In this document: piece after piece, positions 46,338 through 58,762 of the stretch
Position numbering within the stretch: the stretch's first letter is position 1
How the letters are laid out: the number at the start of each line of letters is the position of its first letter
Source of the DNA: an uncultured bacterium
GTDB taxonomy: Bacteria > Patescibacteriota > Patescibacteriia > Patescibacteriales > UBA12465
Length of the DNA: 64,000 nucleotides
Direction: 5' to 3'
NCBI GenBank assembly: GCA_938003925.1
Contig: CALKWQ010000023.1
Coordinates: forward strand, 18,885-82,884
Program-made: the position numbers and the translations under genes
Notes under the pieces: model-generated
The model's input: the letters and a program-made list of their open reading frames with translations, nothing else
Database searches by the model: none
Told to the model about the DNA's origin: nothing

Positions 46338-46343
46338 TTATAT

Positions 46344-46366
46344 GGGTGGGCGCACAAGGATTCGAA
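46344..46366. repeat. Distal att direct repeat (copy of the tRNA-Val 3' end)
   Basis: GGGTGGGCGCACAAGGATTCGAA, identical to 58686-58708. Confidence 0.9.
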
Positions 46367-46481: not shown

Positions 46482-46505
46482 TTTTGGACACAATATGGAC
46501 ACAGT
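46482..46505 (+). promoter_or_regulatory. Putative integrase arm-type binding site (left arm)
   Basis: TTTTGGACACAATATGGACACAGT matches 58561-58584 at 23 of 24 positions and contains a tandem TGGACACA. It lies 116 nt inside the left core repeat. Confidence 0.5.
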
Positions 46506-50528: not shown

Positions 50529-51827
50529 ATGGAAAAGCTACAAATAAATGCTGACCCAAGTAAAAAATTTTTTATTGAAATGTTGACAAGGGATATCAGT
50601 TTAATTGACTGTATTCTTGATTTAATCGACAACTCTGTTGATAGCATAATAAAAGCCGCAAAGTTTGACCCGATGAAAGGACTGTATGGTAAAGAAAAAC
50701 CATTAGATGCTTATAAAATATCTGTAAATTTTAACAAAACTACATTTTCTATTGTTGATAATTCAATCGGCATTACTAAGAGTGACGCTGAAAATAAAGT
50801 ATTTAGATTTGGGTCTAATCAAGAAGAAGGAAATGAAGCTGGTCTTAGTGTATATGGAATCGGAATGAAACGATCTTTCTTAAAAATAGGAAGAGAAATA
50901 AATTTTAAAACAAAAAATAAAAAAGAGACAATTGAAGTAGACATTGATGTGTTAAAATGGCTAAAAAGCGCCGACTGGGACTTCAGCGGAAAAGTTAATA
51001 CTTCAAGCGGTGCAACGGGGACGGTCATAAAAGTGTCAAATTTGTACGATAATATAATTTCTAATTTTAAAGATCAAACTTTTGAAAATAGATTATTAGA
51101 TAAAATAAATGAAGTTTATGGTATTTTTTTATTAAACAAGTTAAAAATTGAAGTAAACGGGAAAAAGGCTACTCCAGTAATTCCAAAAATTGCGGTTTCA
51201 GCTAAGATAAAACCATCCATTGACTCTTTTGATGTAAAAGGAGTGCATGTAAAAATTATAGCGGGATTAACCCATGAAGATTCGAAAAGCTTAAACGGTT
51301 GGTATGTGTTTTGTAATGGCAGACTTATTTTAAGTGGCGACAAGACAGATCGAACTGGATGGGGTGGTGCTAATTTAAGACAATTCCACTCTAGCGTAAA
51401 CCGTTTTGTTGGTTTCGCCTATTTTGAAAGCTCAAAAGTGTCATTACTACCATGGACAACAACTAAAGATGGAGTAAACTTTGACTCTGTTATTTATCAA
51501 TACGCATTAAACGAAATGGTAAAAACCGCTCAACCAATAGTTTCATATTTAACTAACTTATATAAAACAGATAAAAATCTTGAGGGTTTAAGAAGCGCTA
51601 TAAATATAAGCAATGAAACTCCGTTAAACGACATTAAGATAAACAAGCAATCTTTTTCAGCACCAAGCATTATTGAATCGAGAACAAAAGATGAAAGAGA
51701 AAAAATATCCTACACAGTATCTATTGAAGATATGAAAAAAATAAGAAAAATAATAGGAAACAACAAAATATCAAATACTAAAATAGGAGAAAAAACATTT
51801 TACTACTTTATTGAATACGAATCTTAA
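50529..51827 (+). CDS. GHKL-superfamily ATPase (HATPase_c_3 / MORC-MutL-like)
   Basis: N-box ILDLIDNSVDS, G1 box VDNSIGIT, G2 box GLSVYGIGMKRS, G3-like GTVIKVSNL, and a later GWYVFCNGRLI segment typical of prokaryotic MORC-like ATPases. Confidence 0.7.
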   Translation: MEKLQINADPSKKFFIEMLTRDISLIDCILDLIDNSVDSIIKAAKFDPMKGLYGKEKPLDAYKISVNFNKTTFSIVDNSIGITKSDAENKVFRFGSNQEEGNEAGLSVYGIGMKRSFLKIGREINFKTKNKKETIEVDIDVLKWLKSADWDFSGKVNTSSGATGTVIKVSNLYDNIISNFKDQTFENRLLDKINEVYGIFLLNKLKIEVNGKKATPVIPKIAVSAKIKPSIDSFDVKGVHVKIIAGLTHEDSKSLNGWYVFCNGRLILSGDKTDRTGWGGANLRQFHSSVNRFVGFAYFESSKVSLLPWTTTKDGVNFDSVIYQYALNEMVKTAQPIVSYLTNLYKTDKNLEGLRSAINISNETPLNDIKINKQSFSAPSIIESRTKDEREKISYTVSIEDMKKIRKIIGNNKISNTKIGEKTFYYFIEYES

Positions 51828-51831
51828 TTAT

Positions 51832-52815
51832 ATGAAAAGTAGAAAGCTAAATTATATAACAAGACCATCAAAGCATATCGAAAGAAAAATATTCGTAGAT
51901 GTTTTAAGATGTTTATCAAAAATTGGATATAATATCCCTAAATATCATTATGTAGGTTTTGGTAGTTATTATTACGCCGATTTTATTCTTTTTAATAGGC
52001 ACTTATCTATAACTGACATGACATGCTTAGAAAATGATAAAGATATAAAGAAAAGAATGGAATTTAATAAACCCTTCAAATTTATTGATTTAAAAATTGA
52101 AGATTGTGGGAAATTTATTACAAAAATTGATAAAAGTAAACGATATATTGTCTGGCTGGATTTTGAAAAAAAATTAAATAAAACAATTTTAGTAAATATA
52201 AAATCTTTAATTCACTCTTTAAAAGATGGGAGTTTATTTATTATTACTGTGAATGCTGATTCCAAAGAAATGTCCGGTTTAGAATTCGCTAACGAAGCAA
52301 TCTCTAGTGAATTTAACAAAAAACAAATTGACCTGCTATATCAAAAAAGTAGTGAGGAATTAAACCCCTTTTGTGGCGAAATCAAAAGAAATGATGTATC
52401 TCCAAAAAATCTTCCTAGTTTATACTCCAAAACTATAAAAAACGCCATTATAAACGCACTGATAGCCCGATCAGGGGAATCATCCTTCTATCAACTTTTT
52501 AATTACATTTACCAAGATGGCGCAAGAATGTTAACATTCGGCGGAATCATAGATAGTAATAATAAAGAAACGATAATAAATGAGTCACTGAGTGGTATAA
52601 AAAAATATATAAATTATGATGAAATACCTACAAAGATAGAATTACCGTCTTTAACGTTAAAAGAAAAAATATATTTAGATCAAAATATTGAAAAGAATGA
52701 CAAAATAAAAGGTGGCTTAAGCGGGCTACCCTTTGAGTTGAGTTCAGAGGAACTTCTCAACTATTTAAAATTTTCAAAACACTATCCTACTTTCTACGAA
52801 ACCATCATAAACTAA
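51832..52815 (+). CDS. Unknown 327-aa protein, translationally coupled partner of the GHKL ATPase
   Basis: Its ATG is 4 nt after the GHKL stop, and its stop is 1 nt before the MTase ATG. The alternating strand/helix pattern (YVGFGSYYYADF, CLENDKD, YIVWLDFE, LFIITVNAD) is weakly reminiscent of a Rossmann-like fold. No known motif recognised. Confidence 0.4.
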   Translation: MKSRKLNYITRPSKHIERKIFVDVLRCLSKIGYNIPKYHYVGFGSYYYADFILFNRHLSITDMTCLENDKDIKKRMEFNKPFKFIDLKIEDCGKFITKIDKSKRYIVWLDFEKKLNKTILVNIKSLIHSLKDGSLFIITVNADSKEMSGLEFANEAISSEFNKKQIDLLYQKSSEELNPFCGEIKRNDVSPKNLPSLYSKTIKNAIINALIARSGESSFYQLFNYIYQDGARMLTFGGIIDSNNKETIINESLSGIKKYINYDEIPTKIELPSLTLKEKIYLDQNIEKNDKIKGGLSGLPFELSSEELLNYLKFSKHYPTFYETIIN

Positions 52816-52816
52816 A

Positions 52817-53701
52817 ATGAAAGACAAAATTATATTAAAAAGCAAGGCAAAATATATTCTCTATGAGGGGGATTGTCTTAACTTAATAAAAAATATTCCT
52901 GACAATTCAATTGATCTTGTTGTTACATCGCCACCTTATTGTATGGGTAAGGAATATGATAAATCATGCGAAGTTGATTATTTTATAAATTTACATGAAA
53001 AAATATTTCCAGATGTTGTTAGAGTTTTGAAGCCTGGAGGTAGCTTGTGTTGGCAAATTGGTTATTATGTAAATAATGGTGATGTAATCCCACTGGATTA
53101 CCTAATTTATGATTTATTAAAAGAACAAAAAGAGTTGTTTCTAAAAAATAGAATTATATGGCATTATGGGCATGGCTTTCATAGCTCTAAAAGATTTAGT
53201 GGTAGACACGAGGTTGTGCTATGGTTTACTAAAGGAAAAGATTCATACAAGTTTAATCTCGATAATGTAAGGGTGCCTCAAAAATATCCCGGCAAAACTT
53301 ATTATAAGGGAAAAAGAAAAGGAGAATTTAGTGGTAATCCTTTAGGGAAAAACCCTGCTGATATATGGGAAATTCCAAATGTCAACGCAAACCACATGGA
53401 AAAAACTGAACACCCTTGTCAATTTCCAGTAGCTTTAATACAGAGGTTAGTGTTAGCACTTACTAACAAAGGTGATATCGTTTTAGACCCATTTATGGGC
53501 TCAGGGAGCGCTGGTATAGCGACTATTGTGGAAGGAAGAAGATTTATTGGATTCGATAATGATAAAAAATACTACAAGATAGCCAAAAAAAGATGTGAGG
53601 AATCAGTGGCTGGTAAAATTAAATTTAGAGCATATGATAAACCCATAATGGAGCCGAATCAGAAAATGGCAGTAGCCAGAAAGCCAGCATCATTTAAATA
53701 A
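52817..53701 (+). CDS. Beta-class N4-cytosine/N6-adenine DNA methyltransferase (N6_N4_Mtase family)
   Basis: Motif IV DLVVTSPPYC comes before motif I LDPFMGSGSAGIA..GFDND, which is the beta-class order. SPPY is more common in m4C enzymes. Confidence 0.85.
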   Translation: MKDKIILKSKAKYILYEGDCLNLIKNIPDNSIDLVVTSPPYCMGKEYDKSCEVDYFINLHEKIFPDVVRVLKPGGSLCWQIGYYVNNGDVIPLDYLIYDLLKEQKELFLKNRIIWHYGHGFHSSKRFSGRHEVVLWFTKGKDSYKFNLDNVRVPQKYPGKTYYKGKRKGEFSGNPLGKNPADIWEIPNVNANHMEKTEHPCQFPVALIQRLVLALTNKGDIVLDPFMGSGSAGIATIVEGRRFIGFDNDKKYYKIAKKRCEESVAGKIKFRAYDKPIMEPNQKMAVARKPASFK

Positions 53702-53753: not shown

Positions 53754-54578
53754 TTATTTAATATCCACGCCTACTGGTGTTGCTTTTTTATTACCGCCAT
53801 CCTCTAAACAGTATAATATTTCATAGCTACTTCCGTCATTAGACTGATATGAATACAAAAAATTATACTTATTCAATGGATCCTTGGGTAAATTAGACAT
53901 ATAAACAACTCCAGAGTCTTTTGTGATTATCTTTGACAAATCTTCAATATTACTAGCTATCGGATACAAATTGTTATCATTGTAATAAAGCTCTAAGGCT
54001 GTTTGTAGTTGCTTAATGTCAGATATTCTCCTTGCATCTCGTGCTTTTTTTCTCGCTGAATTTAAAGCCACTGCGGACAAGGTTGATAATACAGCTGTTA
54101 TAAACACAACTGTAATAATAATTATATATAAAGGAACTGCCATTTTAGATAAGAACGGTATTGCATTATATAAAAACGCAAAAAGGTTAATAACAAGCAA
54201 CCAACTCATTAAAGACTGAAAATATTTAAAAGGACTCTTGAAGAGACGAAATCTATAATCATCAGAATTTGCTTTTAAAAATATTTGACTAATTTGATTT
54301 CGAACATCTTCATAATATTCGTATTGAATTGAAATTTTATTTAAAGAGAAATTTACTACATAGCCAAAAAGCAATAGCGGTAACAAAAGAAACCATGTCA
54401 TTAAGACGTTGGTGTTATTATAAATTTTGTAGTTAATTAGCGTTACTACGATGGTTGATATAGCGAATATAGTAGTAAAATAGAATTTGATTAAATCGAT
54501 TTGTATATCATTAAGTTTTTGCGACTTTAAATCACACTGCTTAAGCTCTTCTAGCAAATATGTCTTATATGCATCCAT
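53754..54578 (-). CDS. Polytopic membrane protein with a C-terminal type IV pilin/pseudopilin-like domain
   Basis: The N-terminal about 165 aa have 4-5 TM helices. Then ..LNSARKKARDARRISDIKQLQTALELYYNDNNLYP...PKDP..Y.Y...G..Y.L matches the post-helix region of CPR-type pilins. There is no prepilin G/FTLIE cleavage motif. Confidence 0.5.
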   Translation of the reverse strand: MDAYKTYLLEELKQCDLKSQKLNDIQIDLIKFYFTTIFAISTIVVTLINYKIYNNTNVLMTWFLLLPLLLFGYVVNFSLNKISIQYEYYEDVRNQISQIFLKANSDDYRFRLFKSPFKYFQSLMSWLLVINLFAFLYNAIPFLSKMAVPLYIIIITVVFITAVLSTLSAVALNSARKKARDARRISDIKQLQTALELYYNDNNLYPIASNIEDLSKIITKDSGVVYMSNLPKDPLNKYNFLYSYQSNDGSSYEILYCLEDGGNKKATPVGVDIK

Positions 54579-54686
54579 GGCTTTATATTTATTTATTGAA
54601 GTTTAATATAATAATATTACAACTTAAATAAGCGAAAATCAATTTATAATCTTAATACTTTTTAATTTTTATAACCCCGGTAATAA

Positions 54687-54715
54687 TTGGACTTTAATTC
54701 AAAAATATGATAAAT
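54687..54715 (+). promoter_or_regulatory. Promoter with extended -10 (TTGGAC-N17-TGATAAAT)
   Basis: TTGGAC at 54687-92, a 17-nt spacer ending in TG, then ATAAAT at 54710-15. Confidence 0.5.
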
Positions 54716-54722
54716 TTTCATT

Positions 54723-54868
54723 GACTACCTACAATTATTAGTAATAAAAGCACGAACAGACTGCTCAGTCTTTGCCGTTTTACGGACAGAAATGGGCAGT
54801 TGACCTCCGCAAAACGGTAGCTTCGTGCTATTGCTAATAGTGGGTAGTCTGGTTGACTGCCCTTTTTT
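54723..54868 (+). ncRNA. Candidate structured RNA of unknown class (about 145 nt) carried by the island
   Basis: The closing helix pairs 54723-54756 with 54822-54849. Internal hairpins are CCGTTTT..AAAACGG and AGACTG..CAGTCT. GGGCAGTTGACC (54794-54805) can pair with GGTTGACTGCCC (54851-54862). The RNA ends in T6. No ORF. Confidence 0.4.
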
Positions 54869-55247
54869 GTTTGCCTAATTAACAAATTCCTAGTCAATAG
54901 AGTCTTAAAAAGATGCGGAATATTGCGGATTTTAAAAATATCTTTTTTCTTTAAAACGGCAACTAAACTACCTATACTTAATTCAATAAAGCCAATATTT
55001 ACAAGGTTTTTATATAAGGATTGACCAACTTACGCAGAGAGGATTAGCCAAAACACAAAAATAAAAATCCGCATCCACAAAAAATCATTCTTATTCCAAC
55101 AAAAAGACAAGGCTCAACTATTTATTTTCTAAATATTAAAAGCTAGCTATTAGTGGAAACCTGGAGTATGATGCTGTTGAAAAAAATAATGAGCCACCAT
55201 AAACAATATTATGTATTTTAAATTATTAAAACGATAATTATAAATTT

Positions 55248-55667
55248 ATGCCAGAAAAGCGCCCAAATAACAAAATTAAGTGGATCGTTGGCTTAACCTT
55301 GTTTTTCATTTTTGTCATTATTATTTCCATGACAAGCGAAGGCACGCCATCAAAAGAAACGACACATAAAGAGATTAGTAATATGACCTCTTTGCAAAAA
55401 ATGACTATTGCCTTTGATGGCGGTTATTCGGAAAAAGAGATTAAAGACAAAATCACTGAAGCTATGGTTTTATATAACATGCCAATAACGGAAGAAGATT
55501 ACAGTCGCGCCGGCAGTGTATTGGTTGCACTAAAACAACAAGAAAAAATAGAAGAAATGCTTATTTTGGATTATATGATCAATAAATTATATACCCCAAA
55601 CATTAACCTAACCTTTCCTGGAGCCGCAGCTCTATCTGTTACGATTTTAAAAACCGGAGCCAATTAA
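55248..55667 (+). CDS. Hypothetical membrane-anchored protein
   Basis: 139 aa with a single N-terminal TM helix. No motif. Confidence 0.35.
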   Translation: MPEKRPNNKIKWIVGLTLFFIFVIIISMTSEGTPSKETTHKEISNMTSLQKMTIAFDGGYSEKEIKDKITEAMVLYNMPITEEDYSRAGSVLVALKQQEKIEEMLILDYMINKLYTPNINLTFPGAAALSVTILKTGAN

Positions 55668-57303: not shown

Positions 57304-57513
57304 ATGCAACTAGGTTCAAGCGAACACAACCAAATATCAAGCCTTATCACGCCTAAAGATTTAGCAGTTTTGTTGAAGGTTTCTAATACAACTATTTACC
57401 GGATAATAGAGGGTCGTAAGATATCGTTTTATAAAATAAACGGAAGTATTAGATTTAGACAGGCAGATGTTGAGGCTTACATGAAAGTAAACCGCTTTGA
57501 ACCGCTAAAGTAA
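57304..57513 (+). CDS. Excisionase-family HTH DNA-binding protein (Xis-like)
   Basis: ITPKDLAVLLKVSNTTIYRIIEGRKISFYKINGSIRFRQADVEAY. The gene ends 4 nt before the integrase start. Confidence 0.65.
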   Translation: MQLGSSEHNQISSLITPKDLAVLLKVSNTTIYRIIEGRKISFYKINGSIRFRQADVEAYMKVNRFEPLK

Positions 57514-57517
57514 CTTT

Positions 57518-58657
57518 ATGAGTATATTTAAGCGTGGAAATAAATATTGGATAAGTATCAGGCATAATAAGCAAAGATATAGACTATCCAGCCCCGCCAA
57601 CACTTTGACAGGAGCTAAAGCCTATGAAGCCTCCTTAAGGGGGAAATTAGCCCTAGGACAGCCAATTATAGACGAGCAAAAAGAATCCATAAACTTCACC
57701 CAATTTGCCGATAAGTGGTTTAGCACTTACGTAATAACTAATAATAAACCGTCGGAACAGTTAAACAAGAAGATGGCTATAAAGAACCACTTAAAGCCAT
57801 TCTTCGGAAAAATGGACATTGATAAAATCACTCCCCTAAATATTGAGGAATTTAAGGCTAAGAAACAAGCCGAGGGCAAATGTAATAAAAGTATAAACAA
57901 TTACCTCGGTATGCTAGGCAAATGTTTAAACTGTGCCGAAGAGTGGGGTTTATTAGATAAAGTACCGAGAATAAAACCGTTAAAAATTCCACCTCAAAAA
58001 TTTCGCTTCTTTACTGAAGCAGAATACAACCAGTTACTAGAGGAGGCAAAAAAAATTAACCAAGAATTTTATGAGATGGTTTTATTTACCCTAAGAACAG
58101 GGGTCAGGGTGGGAGAACTTAAAGCCCTTATGTGGGAAGATATAGATTTTAAGAATAAGAAAGTTACCATTAAAAGATCTATAGTAAACGGAATTATCGG
58201 CTCACCAAAGAGCAATAAAATAAGAAAGATACCTCTAACAAACGATACAGTTGAGATGTTAAATGCAAAAAAACGGGTTTCTGCCGACTTCTATATATTT
58301 AATCACGAAAAGAGCCGTTTCTCACTTAATAGGTCGCTAAAACGAGCTTGTAAAAATTTGGGGTTAAAAGTTGGCGGTTGGCACGATTTAAGACACACCT
58401 TTGCCTCAAAACTATCTAACAACGGAGTAGCACTTCAAGTTATTCAGGTATTACTCGGTCACTCTGATTTAAAGATGACTCAACGTTACGCACACTTAGA
58501 ACCACTAACACTAAGCGACGCGATTAAGACACTAGAACCTAAAGAACCACTAGATTCTAATTTTGGACACAATGTGGACACAGTTCCAGAAAGTCCAATC
58601 ATTTCCGAGGTTAAAAATATTCCTATAAACAGTAATTTTGTGCTTACTATAAAATAA
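57518..58657 (+). CDS. int: Tyrosine-type site-specific integrase
   Basis: N-terminal SAM-like domain. Catalytic region LRTGVRVGEL..., HDLRHTFAS, LLGHSDLKMTQRYAHL (R..HxxR..Y). Confidence 0.9.
   Translation: MSIFKRGNKYWISIRHNKQRYRLSSPANTLTGAKAYEASLRGKLALGQPIIDEQKESINFTQFADKWFSTYVITNNKPSEQLNKKMAIKNHLKPFFGKMDIDKITPLNIEEFKAKKQAEGKCNKSINNYLGMLGKCLNCAEEWGLLDKVPRIKPLKIPPQKFRFFTEAEYNQLLEEAKKINQEFYEMVLFTLRTGVRVGELKALMWEDIDFKNKKVTIKRSIVNGIIGSPKSNKIRKIPLTNDTVEMLNAKKRVSADFYIFNHEKSRFSLNRSLKRACKNLGLKVGGWHDLRHTFASKLSNNGVALQVIQVLLGHSDLKMTQRYAHLEPLTLSDAIKTLEPKEPLDSNFGHNVDTVPESPIISEVKNIPINSNFVLTIK
58561..58584 (+). promoter_or_regulatory. Putative integrase arm-type binding site (right arm, inside the int 3' end)
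   Basis: TTTTGGACACAATGTGGACACAGT, 102 nt from the right core repeat, paired with 46482-46505. Confidence 0.5.
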
Positions 58658-58685
58658 AAACAGGTATTAACCTGTTTTTATATAA

Positions 58686-58708
58686 GGGTGGGCGCACAAG
58701 GATTCGAA
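58686..58708. repeat. Proximal att direct repeat (3' end of tRNA-Val)
   Basis: GGGTGGGCGCACAAGGATTCGAA, identical to 46344-46366. Confidence 0.9.
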
Positions 58709-58762
58709 CCCTGGACCCCTTCGGTGTAAACGAAGTGCTCTAACCAGCTGAGCTATGCGCCC
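58689..58762 (-). tRNA. tRNA-Val(UAC)
   Basis: 74 nt. Acceptor GGGCGCA/TGCGCCC, discriminator A, anticodon arm CTTCG-TTTACAC-CGAAG, T-arm CAGGG-TTCGAAT-CCTTG. Confidence 0.9.

Follow-up and report, generated by a model that had tools for sequence, protein, structure and literature searches.

A structured RNA family in integrating elements of Patescibacteria, with a possible role as a cassette leader

The 64,000-nucleotide (nt) stretch analysed here (the window), taken from contig CALKWQ010000023.1 of an uncultured Patescibacteria bacterium, carries a structured RNA of ~146 nt that, judged from its sequence, is real and belongs to an undescribed family. The RNA sits in a 12.3-kb low-G+C element integrated at tRNA-Val, with att repeats at both ends. 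Its family comprises at least 15 loci (nine full-length, five 5'-truncated and one decayed) in four sequence clades, and is marked by a conserved loop and tail, a covarying fold, alternative pairings of the tail and linkage to a downstream gene. We propose, with about even confidence, that the RNA acts as the promoter-proximal leader or attenuator of a small cassette in Patescibacteria integrating elements and also yields a short terminated RNA. Structured leaders and small RNAs of mobile-element cassettes are, as a general kind, already known.

Patescibacteria, also called the candidate phyla radiation (CPR), have tiny genomes; to our knowledge, almost nothing is known of gene regulation in CPR bacteria or their mobile elements, and very few CPR-specific structured RNAs have been described. 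The family reported here is supported by covariation, travels with two unrelated kinds of integrase and always lies ahead of a gene for a membrane or secreted protein. If it is a transcription gate, it would exemplify, in compact and testable form, how RNA alone can control a 'moron' cassette of a prophage or island, and would add an unusual terminator design. The family is rare; unless its mechanism turns out to be new, it is of modest general importance.

Fold, covariation and conservation of the RNA

A sequence-only reading of the window had described, at this locus, a long closing helix around two hairpins, and a 12-nt segment inside the fold complementary to the segment just before the T6 tract. 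Folding recovered both features: the closing helix leads into a three-way junction that encloses the hairpins P3 and P4 (Table 1), and the loop strand GGGCAGTTGACC is complementary to the tail strand GGTTGACTGCCC at 12/12 positions, two of which are G.U. The minimum free energy (MFE) of the + strand is -57.2 kcal/mol, compared with -34.1 +/- 3.8 kcal/mol in shuffles (z = -6.1, 0/200 as good), while folding of the - strand is weaker (z = -5.0). The loop/tail duplex reaches -21.3 kcal/mol against -10.9 +/- 2.0 kcal/mol in 1000 dinucleotide shuffles of the upstream part, with 0/1000 matching it, and the loop-tail helix is stronger than all 1000 shuffles in two clades. The RNA segment has 44% G+C, against 29% G+C in the surrounding island. 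In the window, the MFE fold differs in its inner pairing, which joins 54759-54767 to the loop strand; this pairing is unsupported in locus L108 and in clades B and C, and was dropped as a consensus. The shared fold lies only ~5 kcal/mol above the window MFE, with the pseudoknot not yet counted.

Table 1. Features of the RNA locus and of its host element in the window
Feature	Position	Strand	Basis or remark
-35 element TTGGAC of RNA promoter	54687-54692	+	sequence
Extended -10 block TATGATAAATT	54706-54716	+	invariant in 8/8 recovered clade A and B promoters
Structured RNA, 146 nt, first P1 base to end of U6 run	54723-54868	+	z = -6.1; covariance model R1
Closing helix, 5' strands: P1 54723-54732, P1b 54736-54745, P2 54749-54756	54723-54756	+	folding
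P3, short hairpin (AGACU GCUC AGUCU)	54758-54771	+	100% of cells paired
P4 hairpin, apical loop of 19 nt at 54787-54805	54774-54818	+	folding and alignment
Pseudoknot loop strand GGGCAGUUGACC (DNA GGGCAGTTGACC)	54794-54805	+	12/12 pairs kept in nine sequences
Closing helix, 3' strands: P2 54822-54829, P1b 54830-54839, P1 54840-54849	54822-54849	+	folding
Alternative local terminator hairpin GGGUAGUC-UGGUU-GACUGCCC, competing with P1	54842-54862	+	8 bp
Pseudoknot 3' tail strand GGUUGACUGCCC (DNA GGTTGACTGCCC)	54851-54862	+	pairs with loop strand
U run UUUUUU, then GU	54863-54868	+	UUUUUGU after the tail in 14/14 loci
Degenerate RNA-segment copies: P4 3'-strand-like AAAACGGCAACT, then P1 5'-strand-like ACTACCTATACTTA	54943-54994	+	families D3, D6, inverted repeat I1
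Downstream open reading frame (ORF), 139 aa, N-terminal membrane anchor and helical domain	55248-55667	+	follows the RNA directly in L003, L007, L009, L101, L108-L111
Backbone ORF, 229 aa	55732-56421	+	three homologues, all in the RNA-to-integrase module
Xis-like ORF, HTH_17-type	57304-57513		by eye and by analogy with L002, not Pfam
Tyrosine integrase of the element	57518-58657	+	domain search
Left att repeat, copy of tRNA-Val 3' end	46341-46366		direct repeat, 24-34 nt
Right att repeat within tRNA-Val (58687-58762, -)	58683-58708		direct repeat, 24-34 nt

Homologous loci were gathered via relatives of the 229-aa protein, the integrase, the 139-aa protein and the promoter pattern, and a scan with the loop motif added two more copies on one IMG/VR contig. 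Clade A contains five full-length copies (the window, L007, L009, L010 and L108) and five copies truncated at their 5' side by contig ends (L001, L002, L109, L110 and L111); clade B contains two full-length copies (L003 and L101) and the decayed one (L102); and clades C1 and C2 consist of a single full-length copy each (L112 and L114, respectively), with no others. The clades each fold independently into one architecture of closing helix, junction, P3 and P4, with P1b in the closing helix of clade A and a P4 apical loop of 19-23 nt across clades, even though the sequences of the closing helix are nearly all different between clades.

In a helix-block alignment (A8), in which the helix strands of nine sequences line up free of gaps, 98.3% of cells pair and 23/46 pairs carry two-sided changes. 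None of 500 shuffles does as well, a shift of the partners by 1-3 columns lowers pairing to 36-44%, and a seven-sequence version gives the same picture. Two-sided changes across clades fall on 13/18 pairs of P1 and P2, on two of the five P3 pairs and on three of the pseudoknot pairs. Within clade A, P2 shows two compensatory pairs, C-G to U-A in L010 and G-C to A-U in L108. The covariance model R1 scores the four other full-length copies of clade A at 150-180 bits (180.2 for the window itself), and, as a model built from clade A only, finds the clade B copies at ~20 bits, on the right strand and at full length. P4 and the pseudoknot, anchored by flanking conserved sequence, are the most trustworthy columns of the alignment; MAFFT with RNAalifold failed to align P1-P3 across clades, and an N-padded manual alignment that MAFFT partly shifted was replaced by A8.

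At the sequence level, the most conserved part of the RNA is the P4 loop, ACAGRAAYGGRCAKUY(N)GACC, and the tail and UUUUUGU are conserved too. Six promoters carry the block TTGGACT-N12-TATGATAAATT unchanged, the heptamer TTGGACT being identical in the window, L007, L009, L003, L101 and L102. Weaker -35 elements precede the RNA in L010, L108, L112 and L114, and clade C has a different promoter-like sequence with similar spacing. The sequence-only reading had given the promoter as TTGGAC-N17, which is right for the hexamer ATAAAT and wrong for the longer TGATAAAT (TG plus ATAAAT, 54708-54715), since only 15 nt separate TTGGAC from the latter. Because P1 begins exactly 6 nt past the -10 block in every copy, transcription probably starts at ~54723. 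The same fixed P1 start, the conserved promoter and the U run argue for an RNA transcribed from the + strand, and the many G.U pairs and the weaker fold of the - strand are in line with this.

The strand evidence bears on a different explanation, in which the locus acts as DNA: proteins would bind at repeated 8-nt motifs, which read GGGYAGTY in clade A and CGGAYAYY in clades B and C, as operator or arm-type sites, or the inverted repeats would fold as single-stranded DNA into an origin or transfer site. Several copies of the motifs do lie close to recombinase genes, in both orientations, and the - strand also beats its shuffles. However, P1 and P2 are wholly changed between clades and yet remain paired, the many G.U pairs would become A-C mismatches on the other strand, the partner that the tail finds past the U run in clade B (see below) pairs through G.U alone, and promoter, P1 start and U run all point to a + strand transcript. 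We regard a DNA-level feature as the least probable of the explanations considered here.

No tRNA was found at the locus, Tandem Repeats Finder returned nothing for 54500-55300, and the repeat-family analysis gave no tandem family either, in agreement with the sequence-only reading. Its statement that the locus holds no ORF needs qualification: a 59-codon TTG ORF runs along the - strand. Since this ORF is broken in three homologues (L009, L010 and L108), the locus is non-coding, and a - strand small protein or type I toxin was rejected. Searches of Rfam 15 at the gathering cut-offs gave no match for the window RNA, L112 or L114; at E <= 10, the window and L003 drew nothing but noise, their best matches scoring 9-19.5 bits where the cut-offs lie at 39-96 bits. 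With the RNA as query, distant-mode blastn retrieved nothing from the phage and plasmid collections, and exact scans of viral collections with RNA segments gave 0 matches. The promoter-only pattern yielded nothing except chance matches in viral contigs, and two of its four metagenome matches were also due to chance. The proposal of a promoter-to-terminator structured RNA of unknown class, with either a pseudoknot or a mutually exclusive terminator, is thus supported by conservation and covariation in homologous islands and by the lack of any Rfam family that claims the RNA.

Partners of the tail and the downstream gene

The tail just before the U run has alternative partners in all clades, of which one or another may decide termination. 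The first is the P4 loop, with which it forms 12-13 bp at about -22 to -24 kcal/mol; this helix, kept in nine sequences, tolerates changes from G-C to A-U, from G-C to U.G, from GA to AG opposite UU, and from G.U to G-C. The second is a segment within the closing-helix 3' strand or next to it. In clade A, this pairing is a canonical 8-bp terminator (-14 kcal/mol) that competes with P1; clades B and C form 9 bp here around a 23-nt loop, the partner segment lying 23 nt upstream of the tail. The third partner follows closely on the U run and creates a hairpin that holds the U run in its loop; its sequence is clade-specific, with GGGCA in A, AUGGGCGCUCG in B and ACGGACAU... in C. Shuffles match this third pairing in 0-2/2000 cases in clades B and C, where it is significant, and in 52-133/2000 cases in clade A, where it is marginal, and the partner is absent in the window.

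A canonical intrinsic terminator, with a local G+C-rich hairpin of 3-8 nt loop directly before a U run, is present in clade A and absent in clades B and C, where long-range helices alone precede the U run and the loop-tail pseudoknot is the single strong one among them. As no local terminator hairpin was found in these two clades, a long-range helix must drive termination there, if the U run terminates. What sets the system apart is that a loop-tail pseudoknot appears to stand in for the terminator hairpin. From clade to clade, the motif past the U run (TGGGCRC) changes together with the tail that it pairs with. This motif was also considered as a left att core (GGGCAC), which would put the RNA outside the element, and was rejected in this role because the true att repeats, of 24-34 nt, lie at 46341 and 58683.

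The RNA is linked to a gene that follows it. An ORF starts 31-47 nt past the U run in 13/14 loci, the exception being the window, where 379 nt (54869-55247) separate the RNA from the 139-aa gene. The protein varies by locus: 139 aa with a membrane anchor, 359 aa with a signal peptide, 197 aa with a zinc ribbon and a membrane segment, or 138 aa with a membrane segment; yet it is predicted to be membrane-anchored or secreted in every case. This RNA-plus-ORF cassette occurs both in tyrosine-integrase islands and on a serine-recombinase prophage-like contig. A simple, insensitive scan found no consensus promoter between the U run and the ORF. Among 18 ORF starts in the window there is almost no Shine-Dalgarno sequence, the upstream regions being A/U-rich; since genes in this genome generally lack one, its absence at the downstream ORF is uninformative.

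The 139-aa and 229-aa proteins have no match in Pfam, PADLOC or PHROGs, and their AlphaFold models (predicted local distance difference test, pLDDT, of 84 and 73, respectively) have no fold match in the PDB. Exact look-ups returned no record for the neighbouring proteins or for P0001, and among 5.8 billion proteins the 229-aa protein has three relatives alone, all encoded in an RNA-to-integrase module. The genes to the left of the RNA vary by locus, while the RNA and the part downstream of it are kept; on this pattern, the RNA belongs to a conserved right-hand backbone (membrane-protein ORF, 229-aa ORF, Xis and integrase) and not to the left cargo.

The sequence-only reading had offered a regulatory, antitoxin-like or guide-like RNA for neighbouring cargo. 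Its link to the cargo does not hold, as the RNA is tied to the backbone and not to the pilin-like gene or the restriction-modification (R-M) cargo on its left. A guide-like role has no support, because no complement to the P4 loop above chance, other than the tail, was found in the 64-kb window. A regulatory or RNA-antitoxin-like role is the best reading.

In the window, the 379-nt spacer contains the degenerate copies of RNA segments (54953-54964 and 54967-54980), which lie in a window-specific stretch of ~340 nt. Part of the spacer (54919-54965) partly duplicates the region just upstream of the 139-aa ORF (55205-55240), and another part (54985-55019) resembles an att arm (58653-58687). These contents look like signs of past rearrangement.

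A leader RNA and its alternatives

As a leader, the RNA would be transcribed from its strong, conserved promoter, starting at the first P1 base, and would fold as it emerges into the long closing helix and three-way junction, presenting a P4 apical loop complementary to the tail that emerges just before the U run. Capture of the tail by the loop would set a 12-13-bp pseudoknot in front of the U run, leading to termination and release of a stable RNA of ~146-153 nt. In clades A and C, a second terminator conformation may arise instead when the tail invades the closing helix at its 3' strand. If a factor or a different RNA masked the loop, the polymerase would read through, the tail would pair past the U run and the membrane-protein ORF, 31-47 nt on, would be expressed. 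Action of the short RNA in trans is possible too, by analogy with the prophage RNAs RCd22 and IsrK.

Several points weigh against this proposal. It draws on sequence and computed folding, from which we infer where the transcript begins and ends, that it terminates or is read through, and that a signal switches the gate; no inducing signal was identified. A hairpin formed past the U run cannot itself decide termination. Alignment A8 was built by hand from separate MFE folds, so that its pair counts lean towards structure, and it represents effectively four independent lineages. The promoter scan was crude enough to miss the RNA's own conserved promoter, and a separate promoter for the ORF is possible in such AT-rich DNA. 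Finally, the window RNA is intact although 379 nt separate it from the ORF and its tail has no partner past the U run; because it persists when uncoupled from the ORF, a stand-alone RNA fits just as well.

Such a stand-alone RNA would be a trans-acting small RNA of the immunity, exclusion or antitoxin type, with its own terminator and with the pseudoknot as a compact, nuclease-resistant fold, the ORF having its own promoter. The strong conserved promoter and the U run are compatible with it, as is an RNA that stays constant while the downstream gene changes (139, 359, 197 or 138 aa) and stays intact in the window, far from its ORF. Five contigs break inside the RNA, and in the one sample that allowed two of them to be compared, L001 and L109 part at a one-base difference, as would be expected if coexisting element variants had their RNA body in common. 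RCd22 gives a precedent for action in trans, and P4 CI RNA gives another. On the other side, the only complement of the loop in the 64-kb window is the RNA's own tail, which would occupy the loop in the terminated RNA; the conserved partner of the tail past the U run implies that read-through transcripts matter; and the ORF keeps its tight distance of 31-47 nt in 13/14 loci. We consider this alternative unlikely, though the strongest rival of the leader, and the leader and stand-alone readings are not mutually exclusive.

The contigs that break within the RNA (L001, L002, L109, L110 and L111) all start inside its 3' half, and four of the five are from separate sequencing runs; L001 and L109, which diverge at a single base, share one (SRR7589087). 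A recombination site at this place was set aside for the simpler explanation that the assembly graph branches where coexisting variants have a common RNA body, which is the likely cause of the breaks.

Two prophage RNAs have a layout like that proposed for the leader. In the RCd22/AbiF cassette of the C. difficile phi027 prophage, a promoter is followed by a non-coding RNA of ~100-130 nt, a Rho-independent terminator and an ORF, with no intervening promoter (PMC12373285). RCd22 occurs as short terminated and long read-through transcripts, and acts both in cis on transcription and in trans (PMC12373285). Our RNA shares this cassette layout on a mobile element; however, it has no match to the abiF motif (RF03085), it has a three-way junction and a loop-tail pseudoknot in place of the two abiF hairpin motifs, and the protein encoded downstream is small and membrane-anchored and not of the Abi_2/AbiF type. 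IsrK of the Salmonella Gifsy-1 prophage likewise exists as a terminated small RNA and as part of a read-through mRNA, with alternative pairings to downstream sequence that set its activity, and controls translation of orf45 and anrP (PMC4825925). Common to IsrK and our RNA are the element-borne setting and the alternative pairings, which here centre on the strand beside the U run, whereas the two RNAs have no homology in sequence or structure. By analogy, the layout and the experimentally demonstrated two-isoform behaviour of RCd22/AbiF and IsrK match what would be expected of a leader.

In P4 CI and P1 C4 antisense RNA (RF01695), a loop pairs with sites on its own leader transcript and causes premature termination before the genes of the element; these RNAs mature through RNase P and act in trans. 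The loop described here similarly complements a site further along its own leader, next to the presumed termination point; unlike in P4 and P1, a single loop/tail pair is involved and is intramolecular, host and element types differ, and RF01695 gives no match. The RNAs of type III toxin-antitoxin systems (ToxI, CptI and TenpI) stand between a promoter and a terminator ahead of a protein gene, on mobile or defence elements, and consist of tandem repeats of ~34-45 nt. The gene order is alike, with a hairpin or pseudoknot and U run 31-47 nt before the ORF in 13/14 loci, but our RNA has no tandem repeats and the downstream proteins have no ToxN/AbiQ-like, PADLOC, Pfam or PDB fold match. A retron msr-msd RNA differs in its genetic context, as there is no adjacent reverse transcriptase gene here, no such domain being found in any neighbouring ORF.

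Leaders that switch between terminator and antiterminator are known from purine-type riboswitch platforms and from countertranscript attenuation in pT181 and pIP501. Two features are reminiscent of them: in clade A one strand serves both as the 3' side of the closing helix and as the 5' side of the terminator hairpin, and three similar strands compete for two complementary ones. They differ in that no conserved ligand-binding core is seen, that our promoter scan of the locus found no antisense promoter, and that clades B and C place a long-range pseudoknot, not a local hairpin, before the U run. Beyond the general layout, no defining feature of type III antitoxin, abiF-motif, C4/CI, retron or riboswitch RNAs is found in this RNA.

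The same features bear on a metabolite or ion riboswitch, with the three-way junction as aptamer and the tail and its alternative helices as expression platform. The junction itself, the overlap of the closing P1 3' strand with the clade A terminator hairpin, the mutually exclusive pairings and the position in a 5' leader would all suit this idea. The junction strands, though, vary in length and sequence between clades, conservation being limited to the P4 loop and tail; the downstream genes encode variable membrane or secreted mobile-element proteins with no common metabolic or transport function; and no Rfam riboswitch matches. A riboswitch therefore seems to us highly improbable.

An element for RNA stability or processing, such as a 5' exonuclease block with the topology of flavivirus exonuclease-resistant RNAs (xrRNAs) or a self-cleaving ribozyme, is very unlikely as well. 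It would account for a closing helix with two hairpins and an apical loop that pairs 3' of that helix, placed at the extreme 5' end of the presumed transcript. The pseudoknots of xrRNAs are, however, much shorter than the 12-13 bp seen here; no ribozyme or xrRNA family in Rfam matches; and the conserved U run would be left unexplained.

Returning to the leader proposal, it could extend to a new type of RNA-only transcription gate, self-contained, in which the loop of a pre-folded three-way junction captures the nascent tail to build a pseudoknot terminator, and the released RNA, or the transcript of a related incoming element, competes for the loop; the cassette would thereby sense superinfection by related elements and switch on a membrane protein for exclusion or defence. 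This extended version is a long shot. If true, it would amount to an RNA-based immunity of CPR integrating elements and prophages, like P4 CI in its logic and structurally unrelated to it.

The host element and its relatives

The RNA always occurs in integrating elements, either tRNA-Val islands that carry a tyrosine integrase or a prophage-like contig that carries serine recombinases. The elements of clades A and B occupy a tRNA-Val beside tRNA-Leu and an rplS-like gene, in metagenome-assembled genomes of Patescibacteria/Paceibacterota; the clade C copies adjoin large serine recombinases, ParB-methylases and small-terminase-like genes. In the window, what had been called a defence island is as a whole a single integrative element at tRNA-Val or several such elements combined. 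Its order is: R-M pair, GHKL trio, pilin-like gene (-), RNA, 139-aa, 229-aa and 54-aa ORFs, Xis-like ORF, integrase and tRNA-Val.

The R-M pair in the left part is of the HsdM/HsdS type (N6 DNA methylase and specificity subunit), and no HsdR was seen beside it. Three co-oriented genes at 50529-53701 encode a GHKL/HATPase_c_3 protein (432 aa), a Methyltransf_35 protein (334 aa) and an N6/N4 DNA methylase (294 aa), of which PADLOC recognises the methylase alone; the trio may be an uncharacterised modification or defence module. The pilin-like gene (53754-54578, -) is atypical, as its match to the T2SSG pilin type covers residues 176-261 alone and the N-terminal ~170 aa contain several hydrophobic segments. 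A pilin-like homologue of equal length lies to the left of the RNA in L009. A near-identical 24-nt repeat joins the left end of the island (46482-46505) to the 3' end of the integrase gene (58561-58584); the left copy lies in a 77-aa ORF with FGHNMDTV, where the integrase has NFGHNVDTV, and looks like the leftover integrase C-terminus of an earlier tandem element.

Attachment-site fragments consisting of the tRNA-Val 3' end followed by ACATAA... occur in L101 (~4660, -) and L102 (~1405, -), where they divide the RNA/integrase element, or the decayed RNA copy, from another element, which indicates tandem arrays of elements at tRNA-Val. The RNA copy of L102 is degenerate and its integrase module is lost. 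Just upstream of the clade B RNA, L003 (461-1174) and L102 (1699-2412) carry a divergent pair of a DUF3800 gene and a ~140-aa gene; none of the Rfam motifs associated with DUF3800 gave a match in the L003 copy.

The contig of L007 (CAZYNT010000008.1) is labelled 'uncultured Gammaproteobacteria', and its tRNA-Val/tRNA-Leu synteny, 84%-identical integrase and RNA are as in the Patescibacteria loci, so the contig is probably mis-binned. The diverged clade C copies, L112 (2802-2954) and L114 (5685-5836), are both found on the predicted viral contig UViG_3300042286_000458 of IMG/VR, ~23 kb apart. Their flanks are alike, with a large serine recombinase, a 138-aa membrane protein, a small-terminase-like protein and ParB-methylases, and a 38-nt block, GTAGGTAAACTGTTGGTAACTAAACTTTACTTTTAGG, is identical upstream of the RNA in both; the contig represents either two related tandem prophages or a large duplication.

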